Part shown: piece by piece, positions 44,147 to 55,443 of the stretch
Layout: every line of letters begins with the position of its first letter
Position numbering within the stretch: position 1 is the first letter of the stretch
DNA from: Candidatus Krumholzibacteriia bacterium
Lineage (GTDB): Bacteria; Krumholzibacteriota; Krumholzibacteriia; JAJRXK01
Direction: 5' to 3'
DNA: 64,000 nt
Assembly: GCA_041484665.1 (NCBI GenBank)
Contig: JBGPIA010000004.1
Span: 1 to 64,000, forward strand
Translations under genes and position numbers: made by a program
Notes under the pieces: generated by a model
The model's database searches: none
Told to the model about the DNA's origin: nothing
The model's input: only the letters and a program-made list of their open reading frames with translations

Positions 44147-45280
44147 CTACGCGAGCGCGGCGCGGAGGTCGTCGATCAGGTCCTCGACGTCCTCGATCCC
44201 CACGCTGAGGCGCACGAGCCCGTCGGTGATGCCCAGCGCAGCGCGCTCGGTGGCGGGGACGGAAGCATGGGTCATGACGGCGGGATGTGCGATGAGGCTC
44301 TCGACCCCACCGAGACTCTCGGCGAAGGTGAACAGCTTCACGCGCGTGACCGCTGCCTGCGCCGCCTCGAGGCTGCCGAGGTCGAAGGCGATCATGGCGC
44401 CAAAACCGGTCATCTGGCGCCTGGCTAGATCGTGGCCAGGGTGGTCGGGCAGGCCGGGGTAGTAGAGCTTGCGCACACGGGGGTGCCGGGCCAGCATCGC
44501 GGCGATCGCCCGCGCGTTCTCCTCGTGCTGGCGCATGCGCACCGCCAGCGTCTTGACCCCGCGCAGCGCCAGCCAGCAGTCCCAGGGGCCCGGAACGGCG
44601 CCGGCCGCGTTCTGCAGGAAGCGCAGCGCGGCATGGAGCTCGTCGTCGCCGGTGACCACGATCCCGCCCACCATGTCGCTGTGCCCGTTGAGGTACTTGG
44701 TCGTGGAGTGGACCACGGCGTCGGCGCCCAGCGCGAGCGGCCGCTGGAAGTAAGGGCTCATGAAGGTGTTGTCGACCACCAGGCGCGCTGCGCGCGCGTG
44801 GGCCAGGCGTGCCGCGGCGGCGATGTCGGTGATGGAGAGCACCGGGTTGGTCGGGGTCTCGACGTAGAGCATGCGGGTGCGCGGCGTCCACGCCCGCTCC
44901 ACGTTGGCCAGATCGCTGGTGTCCACGAAGGCGAACTCCAGGCCGAAGCGCCGCAGCACCTGCTCGAACAGGCGGTAGGTCCCGCCGTAGACGTTGTGCG
45001 TGCACACCACGTGGTCGCCCCCGCTGAGCGTCTGGACCAGGGCGTGGATGGCAGCCATGCCGCTGGCGTAGGCGATGCCGTGGCGCGCCCCCTCCAGCTT
45101 GGCCACGCAGGCCTCCAGCGCCTCGCGGGTGGGATTCTGCGTGCGCGCGTACTCGTAGCCCTTGTGGCGCCCGATCCCCTCCTGCCGGTAGGTGGAGGTC
45201 TGGAAGACCGGGACCGTCACCGCGCCGGTGGTAGGCTCGGGGTGCTGGCCGGCGTGGATGGCGTCGGTGGCGAAGCCCAC
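44147..45280 (-). CDS. Cystathionine gamma-lyase/synthase (PLP)
   Basis: YEYARTQNPT, SGMAA, YGGT, ETPTNP, DNTF, HSTTKYLNGHSD and ESLGGVESL motifs. Confidence 0.92.
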   Translation of the reverse strand: MGFATDAIHAGQHPEPTTGAVTVPVFQTSTYRQEGIGRHKGYEYARTQNPTREALEACVAKLEGARHGIAYASGMAAIHALVQTLSGGDHVVCTHNVYGGTYRLFEQVLRRFGLEFAFVDTSDLANVERAWTPRTRMLYVETPTNPVLSITDIAAAARLAHARAARLVVDNTFMSPYFQRPLALGADAVVHSTTKYLNGHSDMVGGIVVTGDDELHAALRFLQNAAGAVPGPWDCWLALRGVKTLAVRMRQHEENARAIAAMLARHPRVRKLYYPGLPDHPGHDLARRQMTGFGAMIAFDLGSLEAAQAAVTRVKLFTFAESLGGVESLIAHPAVMTHASVPATERAALGITDGLVRLSVGIEDVEDLIDDLRAALA

Positions 45281-45283
45281 GGC

Positions 45284-46678
45284 TCACTCCTCCCCATGGA
45301 TGTAGTCGATGAGGTCGTAGCGGGTCAGGATCCCCGCGATGCGGCCGTGCTCCCCCACCAGGACGGCCGCATCGCGGCCGCCGAGCAGCTTGAGCACTTC
45401 GAGCGTCGAGCGCGAGCCGTCGATCAAGGGCAGCGCTGGCTCCTGGAAGTCGGACACCCGCGCTCCCATCGCTTCGGTATGGTCCAGGACGGCTGCCATC
45501 AGCTTGCTGTCGGTCACCCGGCCCACCGGCTGGCCGTCGCGCATCACGGGCAGCTGGCTCACCTGGTAGCGGCGCATGAGCTCGATTGCCTCGCGCACGG
45601 GCGCTGCCGCGTCCACCGTGATCAACAGGGGCAGGCCACCGGGCTTGGCATGCACCACGTCGGCCGCGGTCACCACATCGGCGCCCAGGAAGCGGTTCTC
45701 GCGCATCCAGTCGTCGCTGTAGATCTTCGACAGGTAACGCGACCCGGAGTCCGGCAGCAGCACCACCACCAGCTGCGCGGGCGGCAGCTCGCGGGCCACC
45801 TCCAGCGCCACCACCACCGCCGCGCCGCAGCTGCCACCCACGAACAGGCCTTCCAGGCTGGCGAGCTTGCGCGTCGTAAGCATGGCACTGCGGTCGTCCA
45901 CCGTCCGCAGCTCGTCTACCCATTGCCGGTGGAAGCAGCCGGGGATGATGTCCTCGCCGATCCCCTCGATCTTGTAGGGCTCGGCCTCGGTCATCTCGCC
46001 GGTGTCGAACCAGTGCTTGAGGATGCTGCCCTTGGGATCAGCGCCGACGACGCGCACCCCCGGATTCTGCTCCTTGAGGTAGCGGCCCACGCCGCTGATC
46101 GTCCCACAGGTGCCGATCCCCGCCACGAACACGTCGAGCTTGCCCTCGGTCTGCTCCCAGATCTCCGGCCCGGTGGTATCGTAATGGGCCTGCGGGTTGG
46201 CGTCATTGTCGTATTGATTCATCCAGATGCAGTTGTCGTTCTCCTCCGCCAGGCGCCGCGCCACGGAGTAGTAGCTCTCGGGGCTGTCGGGCGGTACGGC
46301 GGTCGGCGTGACGATCACTTCCGCACCCATGGCGCGCAGCAGACGGATCTTCTCCTGGCTCATCTTATCGGGCATCGTGCAGACGAGCTTGTACCCCCGC
46401 ACCGCGCACACCAGGGCCAGCCCCATGCCCGTATTGCCGCTGGTGCACTCCACGACGGTGCCGCCCGCGCGGAGCTTCCCGCTGCGCTCGGCGGCGTCGA
46501 TCATGGTCGTGCCGATGCGGTCCTTCACGCTGCCGCCCGGATTGAAGTACTCGACCTTGGCGTACACCTTCGCGCCGCGCGGGTCGGGGAGGCGGCGCAG
46601 GCGCACCAGCGGCGTTCCGCCGATGGCTTCGGTGATGTCCTCGTAGACCGCGGGTGCGGGGCGGCGGCGTGGCTGCAT
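45284..46678 (-). CDS. cbs: Cystathionine beta-synthase with C-terminal CBS pair
   Basis: NPGGSVKDR, TSGNTG, GIGTCGT, YKIEGIG and PDSGSRYLSK motifs; two CBS domains. Confidence 0.9.
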   Translation of the reverse strand: MQPRRRPAPAVYEDITEAIGGTPLVRLRRLPDPRGAKVYAKVEYFNPGGSVKDRIGTTMIDAAERSGKLRAGGTVVECTSGNTGMGLALVCAVRGYKLVCTMPDKMSQEKIRLLRAMGAEVIVTPTAVPPDSPESYYSVARRLAEENDNCIWMNQYDNDANPQAHYDTTGPEIWEQTEGKLDVFVAGIGTCGTISGVGRYLKEQNPGVRVVGADPKGSILKHWFDTGEMTEAEPYKIEGIGEDIIPGCFHRQWVDELRTVDDRSAMLTTRKLASLEGLFVGGSCGAAVVVALEVARELPPAQLVVVLLPDSGSRYLSKIYSDDWMRENRFLGADVVTAADVVHAKPGGLPLLITVDAAAPVREAIELMRRYQVSQLPVMRDGQPVGRVTDSKLMAAVLDHTEAMGARVSDFQEPALPLIDGSRSTLEVLKLLGGRDAAVLVGEHGRIAGILTRYDLIDYIHGEE

Positions 46679-46795
46679 GGCGTCGCGAGGAGCGCGGCTC
46701 CCCTCTCCTTTCGTGGCGCGGGGTGGGTCGGTGGGGGTCGCCGCGAGGGCCGGGGCGGTCGCGGCAGGTGCCGTCCCGGGCGGCAAGCCCGGCGC

Positions 46796-47946: not shown

Positions 47947-48840
47947 TCAGCGTTTGCCCGCGCGTGCTGCGAGCACGGCGCGTGGCAGCGCGGTCGCGCC
48001 GTCGGTCCCGAAGGCCAGGCAGCGCAGCTGCAGCAGCGCGATGAGCGGCGGCGGCGCACGCCGGTTGGGCTCGGGTGGATCGACGGCGGTCTCGACGCGC
48101 GTGGTGGTCGTGGCGCCGAGCAGGTGGAACACCGGGACCTGGGCGCTGATCTGCGCCTGGGAGCGGGCCACGGTGCGGTGGATGAGCGTGCGCCGCCCCA
48201 TGGGTACGCGCTGCTCTCGCGTCTCGCTGAGCACCACTTCCTCGCGGGCCAGGCGCCCGCCGCTCCAGGTGGTGTCCGGCAGCGTGGAGCGCGTCAGTTG
48301 CGGCGATGTGAAAATATCCTGGAAATGGCGGCGCACGAGGCGGTTGTTGCGCAGCTGCGCCAGATCCTGCGCCTGCGCGCTCCCGTCGCCGGGCAGCCGG
48401 TAGAGCTCGAGCACTGCGTCGAGCAGGTCGACATCGGCGCGCAGCCGGGAGGGATCCAGCTGGAAGATCCACGACTCGGTCTCGGAGCGCACGCGCAGCT
48501 CCACCCAGCGCGTTCCGTCCGGCTGTGCGGCCCGCACGGCGCAATCCAGCGTGTCGGTCTCGACACGCCCCTCGGCAGCCTCGAGACGTTCCAGCCGCAC
48601 CCATGCCCCCGGCGTCAGCTCGAGGGGGAGCAAACCTCGCCGCCACCAGCTGAACAGCTCCTGCGCGTGCGCGGGGCCCGGCAGCACCGCTGCAAAGCCC
48701 GCGGCCAGCGCGAGGCCACACACCAGCAGCCGGCCCCGCAGACGCGGCCGCCTGGAGAGGACCCTCCCCAGGCGGCGCCGGCGTGCTCGCTGCGCGGGCG
48801 CGCTAGTGCTTGATCTTGGCCCAGTAGCTCGCGTACTCAA
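47947..48840 (-). CDS. Exported hypothetical protein
   Basis: Signal peptide ending PAHA-Q; start uncertain (possibly GTG at 48723). Confidence 0.6.
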   Translation of the reverse strand: MSTRATGPRSSTSAPAQRARRRRLGRVLSRRPRLRGRLLVCGLALAAGFAAVLPGPAHAQELFSWWRRGLLPLELTPGAWVRLERLEAAEGRVETDTLDCAVRAAQPDGTRWVELRVRSETESWIFQLDPSRLRADVDLLDAVLELYRLPGDGSAQAQDLAQLRNNRLVRRHFQDIFTSPQLTRSTLPDTTWSGGRLAREEVVLSETREQRVPMGRRTLIHRTVARSQAQISAQVPVFHLLGATTTTRVETAVDPPEPNRRAPPPLIALLQLRCLAFGTDGATALPRAVLAARAGKR

Positions 48841-50206
48841 AGTTCGGGCTGTTCTCCGCCGTGTGGCAGGTCGTGCAGGAGCTCTTGGCGGCGGCGACCC
48901 ACTGGCCGTCGCGCACGTGCTGCGTGCCGTACCCGTGGCACGCCTCGCACTGGACGTTGTACAGCGAATTGCGCCCGCTCTGGGAGTCGCCGCGGTCGTA
49001 GCCGTTGACGTGGTTGTAACCCACCACGTGGCACCCGACGCAGTCGGAGTTGGACTCCTGTCCCTTCTCGACCAGCGTCTGCCAGGCCCGCGCGTGGGCG
49101 CTGGAGGCGTAGGTCTGGTAGTCCTGCGAATGGCACTTGGCGCAGGCGCTGGCGCCCAGGAACTTTTCCGACGTGGACCCCAACGGCCGCGAGTGTGTAT
49201 CCGGCGGGATCTCCTTGGCTTTCTTGGCCGCCTCGGCCTCGAAGCTGGTCACGCGGTCGCGCACCGCGGTGGTCTCCGGGCTCTTCTCGTCGAGCTCGTA
49301 GATGGTGACCGGCTCCTCGCCGAACTGGATCTGGTGACTCTTCTTGTCCACCGTCATGTCCAGCTGGCCGACGTACTTGCCTTGATTGTTGGCCGCCAGC
49401 AGCGCCACGCTGCCGATCTTGTTCAGGCGGCGGTACTGGCGGATGTCCTGCCCCTCGACACAGATGTCGATCAGGGGGTTGTTCCCGTCCTTGTCCCCCA
49501 TGCCCACCAGCAGCTCCCGCGTCTCGGTGCTGGAGAGGTGGGCCAGCAGGACCACCACGTCGCTCTTCTTGCGCAGCTCGGGCAGATACTTGTCCAGGGC
49601 GTCGCGCGGCGAGTCGACTACGAACTGGTCGGGCGTGGCCGACATGGTCGTGATCTTCATCGCCGGGCTCAGCACCGAGATCACGCCGATCCTCAGCCCC
49701 TCCTGCTCGATCACCGTGTAGGGCGGGAACAGCAGCGGGCCGCCGGCGGTCTGGCGCACGTTGGCGTTGACGAAGAGGAACCCGTAGGTCTTCTCCGTCT
49801 CGCGCAGGTAGTCCAGGCCGTAGTTGAGGTCCATCTCGCCGACGCCGAAGACCTTGTAGCCCAGCGCGGCGGTCTCCTTGCACAGGAAGCTCGTCTGGTC
49901 CTTCTCGGACTGCGTGCGCTGACCGAACAGGTCGCCGCCGTCCAACGCCACGACGTTCTTGTGCTCGTGGCGGATCTTCTCGAAGAGGGCGGCCCTCCGG
50001 GCCAGCCCGCCCAGCTGCTTCGACTTTCACCCACAGGGAGAGATCTTGCCCTGCACCGCTGATTGGAACAGCAGCGTCAGGTCGACGCCCTGGTCGGCGC
50101 GGCTCTCGCGGCCGGCGACGACCAGGGCGGCGAGCAACAGGGCCAAGGCTGCGACGAGCGCGCTCCCGCGCCGTCCCAGCATGGAGCGGTTGGACTCCCG
50201 CGACAT
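48803..50206 (-). CDS. UshA-like selenoprotein fused to tetraheme cytochrome c (c554-like); Sec at UGA 50027-50029
   Basis: AGGAGG RBS and signal peptide; GKISPCG-UGA-KSKQLGGLARR in frame with LDGGD...; four CxxCH motifs (CAKCH, CVGCH, CEACH, CTTCH). Confidence 0.85.
49980..50023 (-). promoter_or_regulatory. Putative bacterial SECIS hairpin
   Basis: GGGC-U-GGCCC-GGA-GGGCC-GCCC with bulged U, loop 28 nt after UGA; lower stem UCGAAG/CUUCGA. Confidence 0.7.
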
Positions 50207-50356
50207 CCGGCAACCTCCTTGGTGTGCCAACGCAGGCGGTGGGCGCCGGCCGGCGCCGCCGCACAGGGTGTCATGCTAGCATCGGTAGTGCCGGGGTCGC
50301 AATCGGCCCGCCGGGCCGCCAGGTAAACGCTCCGTAAAAAGGTCGGTTCCCGCGCC

Positions 50357-53300
50357 TCAGTAGCCGAACACCTGGCCGTACCCTCCGCCGACTCCCTGGT
50401 GCCCGCGCGTGACCTTGAGGTCGGGGATCTGTTTGAGATAGAGGCGGAACCCGAACTCGCTGCCGCCGCCGTCGACGCTGCGATCGAACTCCAGCGCCCA
50501 GCAGTGGATGTCGCGGCGCAGGCTGTAGTACTGATTGGTGAACTGGCCGCGGCTCACGTCCAACTCGGTGCTGTAGTGCAACGACCACGCCCCCGGAAGG
50601 GCCACGTTGCCGTCGGCGTTGACGTGGGTCGGCGTGCTCGCGCCGGCCGAGCTCTGGAGATAGCTGTAGCGCAGGTCCACACTCCAGGGGAGCCGGTTGC
50701 GGTCGTGGGACCCGTGCACGCCAAAGCTGCCCGACTCCTCGTCCCCGCCCCACCCGGCGCCCTGCGGGTGCGAGCCTTCCCCCGCTGCCGCCTGCCCTTC
50801 GCGTGCGGAGTCGCCGCGGGCGGGGATGCGCTGCAGTACCGGGCTGAGGCGCTCTTTGCGCTGCAGCAGCGCGCCCCCCAGGTCCAGATCCCCGCCGAGG
50901 TGCAGGTTGCCCTGGATGGTGGACTGCGAGCTCAGCACGTGGAGGTCGTGGGGATCCAGCTGGTGGGAGACCACCAGGTTGACCAAGCGCCCGCCAATGG
51001 GCTGCACGGTGACGGTGCTGGTGATGGGGCTCCACTCGGCGCCCGCCGCAGCTTCCGGGTCGTAGCTCGCCGCCAGGCTCCACCGCACCAGCTGGTCCAG
51101 CTTGCGCGATGCCTCCTTGTCCGGCTGCGGGCCCGACCCTGAGGCGTCGGACGCGACACCTGCCGCCCCTGGGATGCGGGAGCTGCCGGTGGCGTCAGCG
51201 CGTTCGCTGGCGCCGGTACCCAGCGACGTGTCTGCACCGGCCCGCGCGCCGGCGCGGCCCGTGTCGGCCAAAGCGTGCGCCGCGCGCAGTTTGACGGACA
51301 GCTCGTTGTCCAAACCGAAGTTGAATCTCTGGCTGCGGCTCTGCTTGGCCCCCAGCTGGGGGCTGAAGCTGTGCCCCATGCTCCAGGTGACCTTGTGCTT
51401 GATCCCCGTGACCGGACCCAGGCGGGTGCGGAAGATCCCGTAGAGATCGGTGCGCAGCGAATTGGTGAAGGAGAGATTGGGGGTGACCTTGTCCCGCAGG
51501 TCATCGCGGTGCTCGCGCAGGCGCACGCTCTGGGTCACCACCAGGCTGTCGGGCAGCCCCGGACGCGGCACGAGCGTCGTATCGGAGAAGACCGCGTAGA
51601 GCGATTGATGCGTGCTGGTCCGGTTGTAGTCGAAGCCGAAGCCGGCGCTGCTGGTGAAGGCGAACAGCCACAACCGTCCCTTGGGCGCGTAGGCGAGGCG
51701 GTAGGCGCCTCCGGCGCCGATGGCGTCCTGCTGCGTGTTCTCGCTGCGAGTTTGGTCCAGTTGCCCGCGGTACGACTGGCTGAACTGGATGTCGCGCAGG
51801 ACGTTGGTGATGGGCGTACCGAGCTCGTCGCCGTGCAGCGGGGGCAGCAGCGGCCCAGTCTTGAACCCCAGCGTCGCCGCCGGGAGCGTCGTCCGCGAGA
51901 GCTGCTTGTCGGTCAGCGGATCGCCGTCGCCGGCGTTGACGAATTGATCGCGCGAGCCCGACAGGGACAGGTTTACCCCCGATCCGAACGTGCGCGAGAG
52001 CCGCCCCGTGCTGCGCAGCTGGGTGGGCAGCAGGTCGCGCCGGGCGTCGCTGTTCAAGTTGTTGCGCGTGAGGTTCTGGCTGCTGGCGGAGACGTCCGCC
52101 CCGGCGTTCCAGACCTCCCACAGATTCGGCTGGTTGTGGTGTGCGGTGAGGCGCCACTCGTCCCCGCGCGTCTCCCCCAGCTTGACGCCGAAGGCGCGCA
52201 GGTACGAGAAGCTCACCTGGCCGTCCATGCCGTAGCGCACGCGGTAACGGTTGCTCAGCGCGAGGGTGAAATCCTTGCGCTCGTTGTAGTCCAGCTGGAA
52301 GGTGAAGTCGGTGTAGTCGTTGGTGGCCCAGTAGTAGCCCAGGTCGCGGATGTAGCGCCCTTCGCGGCTGCTCACTCCGACGTCGACCCGCGGGAACAGG
52401 ATCCCCGAGTGCCTGCCCGAGTCGAGGCTCTTGAAATAGAACGGTAGCGGCAGCACCGGCAGGTCGCTCACGTAGAAGGTGACCTGGCGCGCCACCACCT
52501 GCTCGTTGAGCCGCAGTCTCATGCGCTTGGCGGTAAAGTGGTAGTGCGGCTCCGCCAGGTCGCAGCTGGTATAGGTTGCGTCGCGCACCAGCAGCGTCTT
52601 CTCATCCAGCCGGCGCACGTGCTTGCCGTAGTAGAAGCCGTCCTGGTAGCGCGTCCCCCCTTCGGCGACGGCACCGGTCTGGGGATCGAAGAGGTAACCC
52701 ATGCGGTCGCCCAGCAGCTCGCTCTCCTTGTCCTTGAGCAGGGGGTCCCCCTCCGCCAGCAGCTCCCGGGCGTTGGTGTCGAAGTGGATCTCCTGGCTGC
52801 CCAGGGTCAGAGTCCCGTGTTGCACCTCGGCGTCGCCGGAGATGAGGATCAGGCCGCGCGGAACGGCGAAGGACGCCCGCTTGCCCTTGTAGAGCACCTT
52901 CTCCGCGTGCGCGTCGAAGTCGATGCGCGCCGCCGTGGAGTCGCCGCCGGCGCCGCGAGTCCGGACTGCAGCCGTGTCCGCCACGGCGGTCGCCCGTGGG
53001 GCAGCCGGTGGTGCAGCCGAACTGCTGTCGGCGTGGGCAGCCGCATGGGGCTCGCCCCGGACAGCCGCGCTGCTGTCGGCGCTCGCGGCCGCCGCCATGC
53101 GCTTGCGCTCCAGGAAGCGGTAGGCCCCCTCGACCTGGCCGTGCACGTCGACACGATCGACGTGCCCGCTCAGGAAGCTGATGTCGATCGCCGAGCCGGA
53201 GACCTCGTTTACCGAGATGGTCGAGCTCTGGTCCTCCGGGAGGTAGGTGCTGCGGGCCGATCCGCGCACGCGGGTGTGGGTCACCTCGTCGTGCACGACG

Positions 53301-54415
53301 TCGATGCTCAGCGTGTCGCCGCGCAGCTGGTTGGCCAGCGGCACGGCGGTGAAGATGCGCCGCAGCGTGTCGGGGCTGCTATCCACCAGCTCGGTCTGCC
53401 CGAAGACGTCGATGCGCCGCAGTTCGCCGCCCTCGTAGAAGAAGCTGGCGCGTTCCCCCGTCAGCGCCTGGCGCCCCTGCTCTACGCGCGGCGTGCCGGT
53501 AAGCACGAGCAGGCTGTCGCCCTGGAAGTCCGCACTGTCGGCGGTGGCGCTCGTGGCACCCTGCCGGAAGCGCACCGCACCCACCGCCCGACGGCGCGAG
53601 CCGTCGCGTTGGAAGACCATGCGGCGGCTCTCCACTTCGGCCAGGCGCTGTCCCTGGCGGCGCGACGTGAGGTGCGGCAGCGAGTCGACCCAGGCCAGGC
53701 CGCTGCGCCGATCGAACCGCGCGCGCGCGCCGGTGATGAGAGTCTGATTGGCGCCATCGACGATGCGCACCGCTCCGAACGCCTGGAGCACTCCGGCGGC
53801 GCGGTCATAGGTCAGCGAGTCCGCATCCACGACGATCGCCCCGTCGATCATGCGGGCATCGCCGGCCAGCGCCAGCCACCGGTCGCTGCGCCGGAGGATG
53901 CCGCGCGCGCCCGTGCCCGTGGTGCCTTCCAGGGTCTGCAGCTTCACGCTGCCAAAGGCGCGGGCGAGGTCGGCGCGCTCGATCACCTCGACGCTGTCGG
54001 CCCAGACGGTGAGCGACTCGGAAACGGCGTGCACCGCGCCGACCAGAAAGGTCTCTTCGCGGTCCATGTCGCGGCGCGCGTGATCGGCAGTCAGCGTCAC
54101 GCCCGTACGGTGGGCGGAGACGTTGCCCGTCAAGACGAGGAAGCGGCGCTGCTCGACGGTAACGATGCGGCCATGGTCGCCATTGACGGTCCAGCGGCCG
54201 GCAACGACTGCGGGCGCCACCGCCGGAGCAGGCGCCGCGGCCGGGCCCGGCGGCGGGGCGGACGGAGCAGCCCCCGGAGCACGCGCGGCGGCGGGGCCGG
54301 GCGGCGGGGAGCCGCTCTGCGCCGCCGCGGCGCACGCCAGCGCAACCGAGACGAGCACCGCCAGCGGCCTGGCCGCCGTGGGCCCGCGCCGGGCGCGCGC
54401 TGCTCGCTCGTCCAT
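50357..54415 (-). CDS. lptD: LPS assembly protein LptD with extended LptA/OstA-like N-terminus
   Basis: YTSCDLAEPHY, LPVLPLPF, RHSGILFP, LGYYWA and RRDIHCW motifs; start approximate. Confidence 0.85.
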   Translation of the reverse strand: MDERAARARRGPTAARPLAVLVSVALACAAAAQSGSPPPGPAAARAPGAAPSAPPPGPAAAPAPAVAPAVVAGRWTVNGDHGRIVTVEQRRFLVLTGNVSAHRTGVTLTADHARRDMDREETFLVGAVHAVSESLTVWADSVEVIERADLARAFGSVKLQTLEGTTGTGARGILRRSDRWLALAGDARMIDGAIVVDADSLTYDRAAGVLQAFGAVRIVDGANQTLITGARARFDRRSGLAWVDSLPHLTSRRQGQRLAEVESRRMVFQRDGSRRRAVGAVRFRQGATSATADSADFQGDSLLVLTGTPRVEQGRQALTGERASFFYEGGELRRIDVFGQTELVDSSPDTLRRIFTAVPLANQLRGDTLSIDVVHDEVTHTRVRGSARSTYLPEDQSSTISVNEVSGSAIDISFLSGHVDRVDVHGQVEGAYRFLERKRMAAAASADSSAAVRGEPHAAAHADSSSAAPPAAPRATAVADTAAVRTRGAGGDSTAARIDFDAHAEKVLYKGKRASFAVPRGLILISGDAEVQHGTLTLGSQEIHFDTNARELLAEGDPLLKDKESELLGDRMGYLFDPQTGAVAEGGTRYQDGFYYGKHVRRLDEKTLLVRDATYTSCDLAEPHYHFTAKRMRLRLNEQVVARQVTFYVSDLPVLPLPFYFKSLDSGRHSGILFPRVDVGVSSREGRYIRDLGYYWATNDYTDFTFQLDYNERKDFTLALSNRYRVRYGMDGQVSFSYLRAFGVKLGETRGDEWRLTAHHNQPNLWEVWNAGADVSASSQNLTRNNLNSDARRDLLPTQLRSTGRLSRTFGSGVNLSLSGSRDQFVNAGDGDPLTDKQLSRTTLPAATLGFKTGPLLPPLHGDELGTPITNVLRDIQFSQSYRGQLDQTRSENTQQDAIGAGGAYRLAYAPKGRLWLFAFTSSAGFGFDYNRTSTHQSLYAVFSDTTLVPRPGLPDSLVVTQSVRLREHRDDLRDKVTPNLSFTNSLRTDLYGIFRTRLGPVTGIKHKVTWSMGHSFSPQLGAKQSRSQRFNFGLDNELSVKLRAAHALADTGRAGARAGADTSLGTGASERADATGSSRIPGAAGVASDASGSGPQPDKEASRKLDQLVRWSLAASYDPEAAAGAEWSPITSTVTVQPIGGRLVNLVVSHQLDPHDLHVLSSQSTIQGNLHLGGDLDLGGALLQRKERLSPVLQRIPARGDSAREGQAAAGEGSHPQGAGWGGDEESGSFGVHGSHDRNRLPWSVDLRYSYLQSSAGASTPTHVNADGNVALPGAWSLHYSTELDVSRGQFTNQYYSLRRDIHCWALEFDRSVDGGGSEFGFRLYLKQIPDLKVTRGHQGVGGGYGQVFGY

Positions 54416-54468
54416 GGGCGTCCTGCCGTTGGCGCCGACCGGGGGCGACGGTTGCGCGGACTCGCTAT

Positions 54469-55443
54469 TCAATGCGCGCGCGACCCGCCTCCGTCAAGGG
54501 GCGCGCGCGCCAGCAGCGCCGCACCGATCGCAGCCGCCTGGTTTCCCAGCTGTGCGGCCAACAGCTGCAGGTGCTCCGCCGTCGGCCGCATCGCCCAGGC
54601 CTTGAGCGCTTGGCCCGCCGGCTTCAGCAGGGGGTCCCCGGCCAAGGCGATTCCGCCGCCGATCACGATCGCTTCCGGATTGAGGGCGTTGGCCAGGTTG
54701 GCGCAAACCACGCCGAGCAGGCGGCCGACGTCGCCGAGGATGCCCACCGACAGCGGATCGCCGTCGGCGGCGGCCAACGCAAGCGCCCGCGGTGTCAGAC
54801 CGCCCTCCTCGCGGCAGCGGCGCAGCAGGGGCTGCTTCTGCTCGTCGCTCGCCGCATCGAAGCGCTGGCCCGCGTAGGTCACGATGCCCGTGGTCCCCAG
54901 ATAGGCCTCCACGTGCCCCTGGCGTCCGCAGCTGCAGTGCGGCCCGTCGATCTGCAGCGTCATGTGGCCGAACTCGCCGGCGACCCCGCGCGCCCCGCGA
55001 TAGAGCTCGCCATCGATCACCAGCCCCCCGCCAACCCCGGTGCCCAGCGCCAGCATCAGCACGTGGCGCAGTCCGCGCGCCGCGCCTACGCGGGTCTCGG
55101 CGTAGACCGCGGCGTTCACGTCGTTCTCCATGGCGACCGCCGCGCCCCCCAGCCGCGCCGAGAGCTCCGCCGCCAGCGGGAAGCCCTCGAACGCCTGGAG
55201 GTTGGGCGCCTCCTGCAGGCTGCCCTCCCCGGACACCAGTCCGGCCACCGCCAGCCCCACGGCAGCCTGGTCGCCGCGCGCCCCGATCCAGGGCGTAAGC
55301 GCCTGCGCCAAGCGCTCTACGAACCGCGCCGGTCCCAGCTCCCCCTCCGTCTTGAACTCCGCGTGCTCGGCCACGGCCAAGTCGTCGCCCAGCCGCACCA
55401 GCTTGGTGTTCGTCGCGCCCACATCGACGCCGATCCATCTCAT
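54469..55443 (-). CDS. ROK-family sugar kinase (glucokinase-like)
   Basis: GVDVGAT, ENDVNAA, LGTGVGGG and GEFGH...CSCGRQGHVE motifs. Confidence 0.9.
   Translation of the reverse strand: MRWIGVDVGATNTKLVRLGDDLAVAEHAEFKTEGELGPARFVERLAQALTPWIGARGDQAAVGLAVAGLVSGEGSLQEAPNLQAFEGFPLAAELSARLGGAAVAMENDVNAAVYAETRVGAARGLRHVLMLALGTGVGGGLVIDGELYRGARGVAGEFGHMTLQIDGPHCSCGRQGHVEAYLGTTGIVTYAGQRFDAASDEQKQPLLRRCREEGGLTPRALALAAADGDPLSVGILGDVGRLLGVVCANLANALNPEAIVIGGGIALAGDPLLKPAGQALKAWAMRPTAEHLQLLAAQLGNQAAAIGAALLARAPLDGGGSRAH

Follow-up and report, generated by a model that had tools for sequence, protein, structure and literature searches.

A stretch of 64,000 nt from Candidatus Krumholzibacteriia bacterium (contig JBGPIA010000004.1, positions 1 to 64,000; hereafter the window) carries on its minus strand a gene for an exported 467-aa member of the UshA-like family NF041198, in which an in-frame TGA is almost certainly a real selenocysteine (Sec) codon. 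The TGA at 50029-50027 alone splits two open reading frames (ORFs) of the same frame, 50027-50230 and 48803-49951, as had been noticed in a first-pass annotation of the sequence; its context is ...QGKISPCG-TGA-KSKQLGGLARRA, and the frame past it stays open to the TAG at 48803. When the TGA was read as Sec (U) and translation was started at the ATG at 50206, a single product was obtained in which a signal peptide, the motif P57-C58-G59-U60, a 5'-nucleotidase-like domain, and four CxxCH motifs (residues 355, 389, 420, and 444) follow one another. The features of the gene are as follows.

48803..50206, minus strand: UshA-like CxU tetrahaem selenoprotein gene (NF041198), 467 aa, from the ORFs, translation, and family match
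50214..50220, minus strand: ribosome-binding site AAGGAGG, 7 nt upstream of the ATG at 50206, from the sequence
50096..50206, minus strand: predicted signal peptide, residues 1-37, with a basic n-region and an h-region at residues 16-31, from a hydropathy scan
50027..50035, minus strand: redox motif C58-G59-U60 with the TGA at 50029-50027, from translation and homologue alignment
49987..50008, minus strand: hairpin of the selenocysteine insertion sequence (SECIS) type with a bulged U, a 5-bp upper stem, and a GGA loop, from folding and homologues
49202..50089, minus strand: 5'-nucleotidase/SoxB-type metallophosphoesterase N-domain and linker helix, without GNH and with D92/E124/H223 retained, from alignment and fold
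48806..49162, minus strand: cytochrome c554-like tetrahaem domain with the four CxxCH motifs (355, 389, 420, 444) and extra conserved His residues 371, 430, and 467

The genome to which the window belongs (5.45 Mb, 93.65% complete) contains selA, selB, and selD, all above their cut-offs, as well as tRNA-Sec (selC), and selA was found in 193 of the 201 phylum genomes searched. Among 110 homologous loci, 96 matched the motif pattern (five of these 96 rows being duplicate loci), and the codon in question was TGA at 77 of them and a Cys codon at 19. A hairpin at 50008-49987, in which (counting from the UGA) a U is bulged at +23 and the loop has GGA at +29 to +31, corresponds to the bulged-U structure with a G-rich loop that the first-pass annotation had described. 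Its folding energy was ordinary (z of -0.78, 0.87, and -0.51 in three windows), and its significance comes instead from its retention in homologues: of 71 distinct TGA loci, 64 had a stem of at least 5 bp at the hairpin position, where synonymous recoding would give 12.3, and the stem was present at one of the 19 Cys loci. One stem pair switches from C-G to A-T at four loci. Because related loci are not independent, these stem figures are to be taken as counts and not as a probability. Contigs from three of four sediment-metagenome runs span the TGA with no differing letter, and the fourth run gave no piece across it.

These results agree with the proposed read-through on four points that the first-pass annotation had named as checks or as refuting outcomes, i.e., Cys at the UGA position of homologues, sel genes in the genome, a SECIS-type element, and an error of assembly. 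The hairpin's unremarkable folding energy would suit a pseudogene, an assembly error, or two separate genes, but the recurrence of TGA or Cys at one codon, the full Sec machinery in this genome with selA throughout most of the phylum, the conserved stem, and the bridging contigs make such an origin virtually inconceivable. The selD gene of the same genome (C10:74937-75869, L114) has one in-frame TGA, so it probably encodes a selenoprotein itself.

The stretch of residues 16-31 is the sole strongly hydrophobic one in the product (mean hydropathy 3.1, as compared with a maximum of 1.4 after U60). As this signal-like stretch precedes the UGA, the downstream part has no signal peptide of its own, in line with the first reading of the gene; cleavage after S-R-A was placed by eye and not by a predictor. 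The expectation that standard pipelines would split the gene was also borne out, since most matches in the protein database begin right after the UGA.

The whole protein scored 293.2 bits against the NCBIfam model NF041198, 'UshA-like (seleno)protein' (UshA_like_PCGU), for which the cut-off is 275. The N-domain matched model positions 3-275, and the haem part alone matched positions 357-519 of 519 (E 7.4e-35); P57-C58-G59-U60 is the PCG[U/C] motif expected near the N-terminus. As the model covers the haem part, the tetrahaem fusion is already built into the curated family, and no difference in architecture was found between that family and the window protein. The window protein is therefore a new member of a catalogued family and not a new family, and its novelty had been overstated. 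The scores against 'UshA-like (seleno)protein family 2' (NF049981; 48.6 against a cut-off of 140) and NF043010 (30.7 against 400) were below threshold. The model NF040886 (MccSep/ExtKL) gave no match to the window protein at E 0.1 and a weak match to one homologue (E 0.00045), and the C-terminal 5'-nucleotidase domain PF02872 gave no match, with PF13435 found in its place. The family is listed by name (COG0737 UshA-like) and CxU motif in PMC2398784, PMC9312934, and PMC13188914, and the listings themselves, in the accessible text, mention neither haems nor function. A literature search combining Krumholzibacteriota and selenocysteine, in which subscription papers were outside the scope, returned nothing.

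The closest named relative came from a Candidatus Krumholzibacteriota metagenome-assembled genome (MAG) (L002); this is also the protein of G057, a genome of the window's family. With E of 1e-20 or lower, 197 of the 201 phylum genomes and all 125 high-quality ones gave a match, a few of the 197 possibly being haem-less paralogues, and one TGA was present in most of the 150 phylum matches listed. This near-universal presence suggests a housekeeping role. Other carriers were titled Eisenbacteria, Latescibacterota, Poribacteria, Nitrospinota, Nitrospirota, Acidobacteriota, Planctomycetota, and Thermodesulfobacteriota, and Atlas clusters suggest, as leads only, Verrucomicrobiota, Myxococcota, and Bdellovibrionota.

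Several further forms of the family were observed. A second copy in the window genome (C11:83192-84028; L116 6656-8065, plus strand) is a Cys form with CGC, 41% identical, that stops after the linker helix and thus lacks the haem domain; no cytochrome gene was seen among its adjoining listed ORFs. On the same contig, near its start, a 46-codon piece (C11:2103-2240, L117) matches the last haem motif and the C-terminus of the window protein at 85% identity, and is a duplicated fragment or a remnant. In an Acidobacteriota sample, N-domain matches that combine an in-frame TGA with short open frames (e.g., G318:C124:6566-7333 and G354:C10:24558-25319) are probably haem-less Sec forms. The family member P0313 carries a C-terminal hydrophobic extension containing His, with no Pfam match there, and this extension may be a membrane electron-transfer domain. 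The window genome also has clusters of multihaem open frames at about 704-737 kb of C2 and about 110-115 kb of C11; the stop-to-stop frames there hold as many as 42, 31, and 23 CxxCH.

The AF2 model of the mature chain had a pLDDT of 93.6 and a pTM of 0.88. The part up to the linker helix resembled E. coli UshA (1ush, Z 32.6) and SoxB (2wdc, Z 30.7; profile match E 2.6e-19), and the C-terminal 120 residues resembled cytochrome c554 (1bvb, Z 10.1, rmsd 2.8), with sequence matches of the tetrahaem domain to cytochrome c554 and OcwA at E 8.4e-8 and 3.2e-9. The proposed joining of a UshA-type fold to a tetrahaem domain is thus supported by the model. The window protein has the N-domain fold and linker helix in common with UshA and SoxB, but it is without NDxH and GNH, has CxU inserted after motif I, and has the tetrahaem domain in place of the C-terminal substrate domain. 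The haem part has the four CxxCH at spacings like those of Nitrosomonas cytochrome c554 and of haems 1-4 of OcwA, likewise with no conserved distal His at haem 2; it differs in its length of about 120 residues and in being joined to a CxU domain.

Conservation was examined in 112 aligned homologues, for which nine loci missed by the CxC/U pattern were added and five fragmentary loci excluded. Position 60 was Sec or Cys in all 112 and Cys58 was present in 107. The five homologues without Cys58 (A/F-G-U; L026, L031, L040, L044, and L054), probably of one clade, keep the UGA, and all five have acquired a Cys, in the loop that follows metal motif V, which none of 103 CxC/U members has. This paired loss and gain suggests that a resolving thiol is needed and that Sec is the nucleophile. 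The haem motifs were nearly invariant, His371 and His430 were invariant, and His467 was present in 108 of 112, so that three conserved extra His residues stand against four haems and one haem is left without a conserved distal His. In cytochrome c554 and OcwA the active site is haem 2, according to the accessible text of bioRxiv 10.1101/641308, and by this analogy haem 2 of the window protein is probably open at its sixth site or has a ligand other than His there.

As stated in the first-pass annotation, QSAVQG and GVGEMD occupy the 5'-nucleotidase NDxH and GNHE positions in the alignments. The claim that the metal motifs had been replaced held for the hydrolytic GNH motif, which was absent from all 112 homologues, but not for the site as a whole, because the window protein retains D92, E124, and H223, and a remodelled one-metal ligand set persists in 55 of 112 homologues. 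The dimetal ligands and catalytic His (DxH, GD, GNH, H, GHxH) are not present as a set in the window protein, which has 2 of the 8 canonical metallophosphoesterase residues (D92 and H223); at most five of the eight were found in 103 homologues. The ligands are distributed bimodally, with D92/E124/H223/H253 all present in 55 of 112 homologues and at most one in 49, and these positions covary strongly (z 8-11, by mutual information over 486 rows, with Neff about 300 and duplicated rows included). To judge from these residues, hydrolase function appears to have been lost, as had been proposed; a metal-free state cannot be assigned to the family as a whole. Between loops 100-112 or 256-257 on the one side and residues 386, 422, and 426 near haems 2-3 on the other, inter-domain covariation reached z 5-6; these pairs were mixed with others that seem phylogenetic, and they are a weak hint only for the putative wiring of C-x-U to the haems that the first-pass annotation had proposed.

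The genes that flank the selenoprotein gene in the window are listed below.

50357..54472, minus strand: lptD, conserved as upstream neighbour and possibly a client (Cys pair retained), given with mechanical ORF limits
47947..48840, minus strand: exported hypothetical protein overlapping the selenoprotein stop codon, without a Pfam or NCBIfam match and a conserved downstream neighbour at 29 of 110 loci

In the phylum of the window and in Eisenbacteria, the family gene follows accD-folC-ROK-lptD, often with HU between. The lptD cluster was found at 58 of 110 loci, and of 31 long LptD ORFs, 28 retain the Cys pair; the two conserved Cys presumably correspond to an E. coli pair. LptD requires disulfides in E. 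coli, according to the accessible text of PMC10567701. At 50207-50356 of the window, no HU gene lies between lptD and the selenoprotein gene; HU was nearby upstream at 48 of 110 loci. Genes of the cystathionine beta-synthase (PALP + CBS) and gamma-lyase types lie 2-4 kb downstream in the window (44147-46786, minus strand), and genes of these types directly follow the family gene at L021, L039, L043, and L049.

Elsewhere, a DsbA-family gene lies 1-132 nt downstream of the family gene at seven loci (titled Nitrospinota, Nitrospirae, and Thermodesulfobacteriota). In a scan of the 90 nearest neighbours of loci L021-L081, MauE was directly upstream at two loci, DUF1573 upstream at two, and DciA downstream at eight. 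The gene order at L068 is lptD, DUF1573, rhodanese, MauE, the family gene, and a gene for a 4Fe-4S membrane-type protein, and L055 also holds DUF1573, MauE, and a 4Fe-4S gene. A DUF1573/MauE module recurred at all four phylum MauE loci scanned besides the window genome's own, with a rhodanese match in two. Among 34 long matches picked from the best 150 representatives, a DSBA-like domain was fused in four (one with CPHC and two with CPYG) and DUF1573 in eight, usually with CGC; DUF1573 itself has a UGC Sec form in the table of PMC13188914, as far as its text is accessible. P0243-P0245, P0337, L069, and L080 are large fusions in which one UshA-like CxC domain, or two, is joined to a tetrahaem domain and DsbA-like domains; at L069 and L080 the gene is preceded by an S26 signal peptidase gene.

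The adjacency or fusion of relatives with DsbA-like proteins, MauE, DUF1573, and lptD suggests disulfide handling. We tentatively favour, at somewhat less than an even chance, the reading that the protein may be a periplasmic thiol/selenol-disulfide relay of the envelope protein-folding network with a c554-like haem chain, and each step of mechanism beyond the identity of the gene is drawn from conservation and gene context. Sec60 would be the nucleophile and would exchange with a client dithiol or disulfide, the partner being a DsbA-like or other thioredoxin-fold protein, DUF1573, or a client such as LptD. Cys58 would resolve the mixed bond to give a C58-U60 selenenylsulfide. The haem domain, which takes the position of the substrate-binding domain on the 5'-nucleotidase linker helix, would cap the old active-site face. 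Two electrons would move singly via haem 2, which lacks a conserved distal His, and three further haems with bis-His ligation, and the chain would link the CxU centre with a cytochrome or a membrane Fe-S partner. Of the two directions we favour oxidation, in which the protein would generate disulfides beside MauE or instead of it, though this is rather unlikely in itself; a reducing or isomerising direction is less likely still.

A stronger version, which appears doubtful, is that NF041198 would be a fourth periplasmic disulfide route after DsbB, VKOR, and MauE, namely a soluble, quinone-independent CxU/CxC oxidase. DsbA-type partners would be re-oxidised and the electrons passed through the protein's own four haems to a cytochrome chain, which would make the protein a single-chain bacterial analogue of the mitochondrial Mia40-Erv1-cytochrome c relay. 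The CGC active site of MauE resembles the Cys forms of NF041198, and the two stand in one operon at L055 and L068; however, MauE, DsbB, and VKOR are four-helix membrane proteins that use quinone, whereas the window protein is soluble or anchored and haem-bearing.

The distribution of the known generators bears on the relay in both directions. DsbB was found in none of the 201 phylum genomes and VKOR in only four, and it was considered that the protein substitutes for DsbB in a phylum lacking both. This argument was dropped because MauE is present in 191 of 201; MauE makes disulfides and replaces DsbB in E. coli, according to the accessible text of bioRxiv 10.64898/2026.03.05.709764 (2026). Among 50 carriers from other lineages, DsbB was found in none, VKOR in 6, and MauE in 23, leaving 26 with none of the three (four of the seven carriers that have an adjacent dsbA belong here), although these genomes are mutually related MAGs of unstated completeness. 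In an Acidobacteriota sample of 201 genomes, in which VKOR only was searched, not DsbB or MauE, VKOR was found in 5 of 37 carriers, counted by hand among the matches listed with 20 loci checked, as compared with 78 of 164 other genomes (G273 being counted among the non-carriers only); 17 of the 37 form one close clade, without which the figure is 5 of 20 and the difference is weak. The MauE gene of the window genome (C2:511158-511532; L143 862-1953, minus strand) is fused, by eye, to a thioredoxin-like domain with CSHC.

Besides these limits on the two comparisons, several points weigh against a disulfide relay. With MauE in 191 of 201 genomes, the scarcity of DsbB and VKOR in the phylum needs no new enzyme. 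The window genome, at its stated completeness, gave no match to a DsbA (PF01323/PF13462) or to DUF1573, and it has a DsbD/CcdA domain, so that MauE and this domain would cover both arms without the selenoprotein; it also holds the haem-less CGC paralogue. Half of the family has a potential metal site, for which a pure disulfide relay would have no use. The neighbouring genes are for the most part unrelated and of a housekeeping kind (HU, exonuclease, DciA in eight loci, folC, accD, and SRP54), and the lptD synteny comes mainly from one lineage block and may reflect shared ancestry alone. A selenenylsulfide is, as a rule, a good reductant and not an oxidant. The literature searched, which excluded subscription papers and supplements, yielded no functional study of the family. 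Complex prediction of the Nitrospinota Cys form L072 with its neighbouring DsbA and four haems scored 0.00 twice and is evidence neither way.

The same haem domain could instead serve a small-molecule sulfur or selenium oxidoreductase resembling MccSep, an unlikely alternative. Sec, with Cys58 near or on haem 2, would cleave polysulfide, thiosulfate, tetrathionate, or S-sulfo groups, and the SoxB-like pocket with its residual metal would hold the anion. This would fit the missing conserved distal His at haem 2, which is the active haem in the closest solved relatives c554 and OcwA, and the fold similarity to SoxB (Z 30.7, E 2.6e-19), as well as the cystathionine beta-synthase and gamma-lyase-type genes that follow at several loci and in the window, the rhodanese in L068, and a NapC/NirT-type multihaem gene that follows in L078. 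According to the accessible text of PMC13510729, MccSep/ExtKL is likewise periplasmic, combines Sec and c-type haems in one chain, and places Sec next to a Cys-ligated haem 2; it has five haems, an Ig-like Sec domain, and no phosphoesterase fold, while the window protein has four CxxCH. MccSep belongs to a different family (NF040886, with its weak match to one homologue), no sox, psr, or dsr genes turned up in the 90 nearest neighbours scanned, and near-universal presence in the phylum beside housekeeping genes suits an envelope function better than a respiratory option.

Sec might also reduce an oxidant in a periplasmic enzyme that detoxifies peroxide, sulfenic acid, or NO, the haem chain recycling Sec. 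The pairing of a Sec nucleophile with a resolving Cys, a haem 2 that may be open, the broad distribution, and an AhpC/TSA gene upstream in L064 are compatible with such an enzyme; as this is the one peroxiredoxin among 90 neighbours and the recurring partners are disulfide-folding proteins, we think it quite unlikely. Slightly less likely again is a metal-dependent hydrolase or metal-handling protein using the remodelled site D92, E124, H223, and H253, with Cys58/Sec60 as ligands or a redox switch. The joint presence of the four residues in 55 of 112 homologues and their covariation, with three of them in the window protein, speak for it, but 49 of 112, close relatives included, keep at most one of the four while CxU and haems stay, the catalytic GNH is gone throughout, and the nucleotide-binding C-domain has been replaced. 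The share of probability left after the disulfide relay and these alternatives falls to unforeseen functions.

In summary, a gene cut in two by gene callers was restored, a modest gain in annotation on its own, as the family is already catalogued. The Sec protein (197 of 201 genomes) and selA (193 of 201) emerge as near-core features of an uncultured phylum. The larger value is a functional lead for a very widespread family tied by operons and fusions to DsbA, MauE, DUF1573, and LptD, and Cys forms encoded beside a dsbA gene would allow it to be tested in E. coli with no need for selenium machinery. Of 20,704 species, 20.1% are without any known disulfide generator, according to the accessible text of bioRxiv 10.64898/2026.03.05.709764; a fourth disulfide route, if true, would fill part of the gap in species that lack the three known generators.

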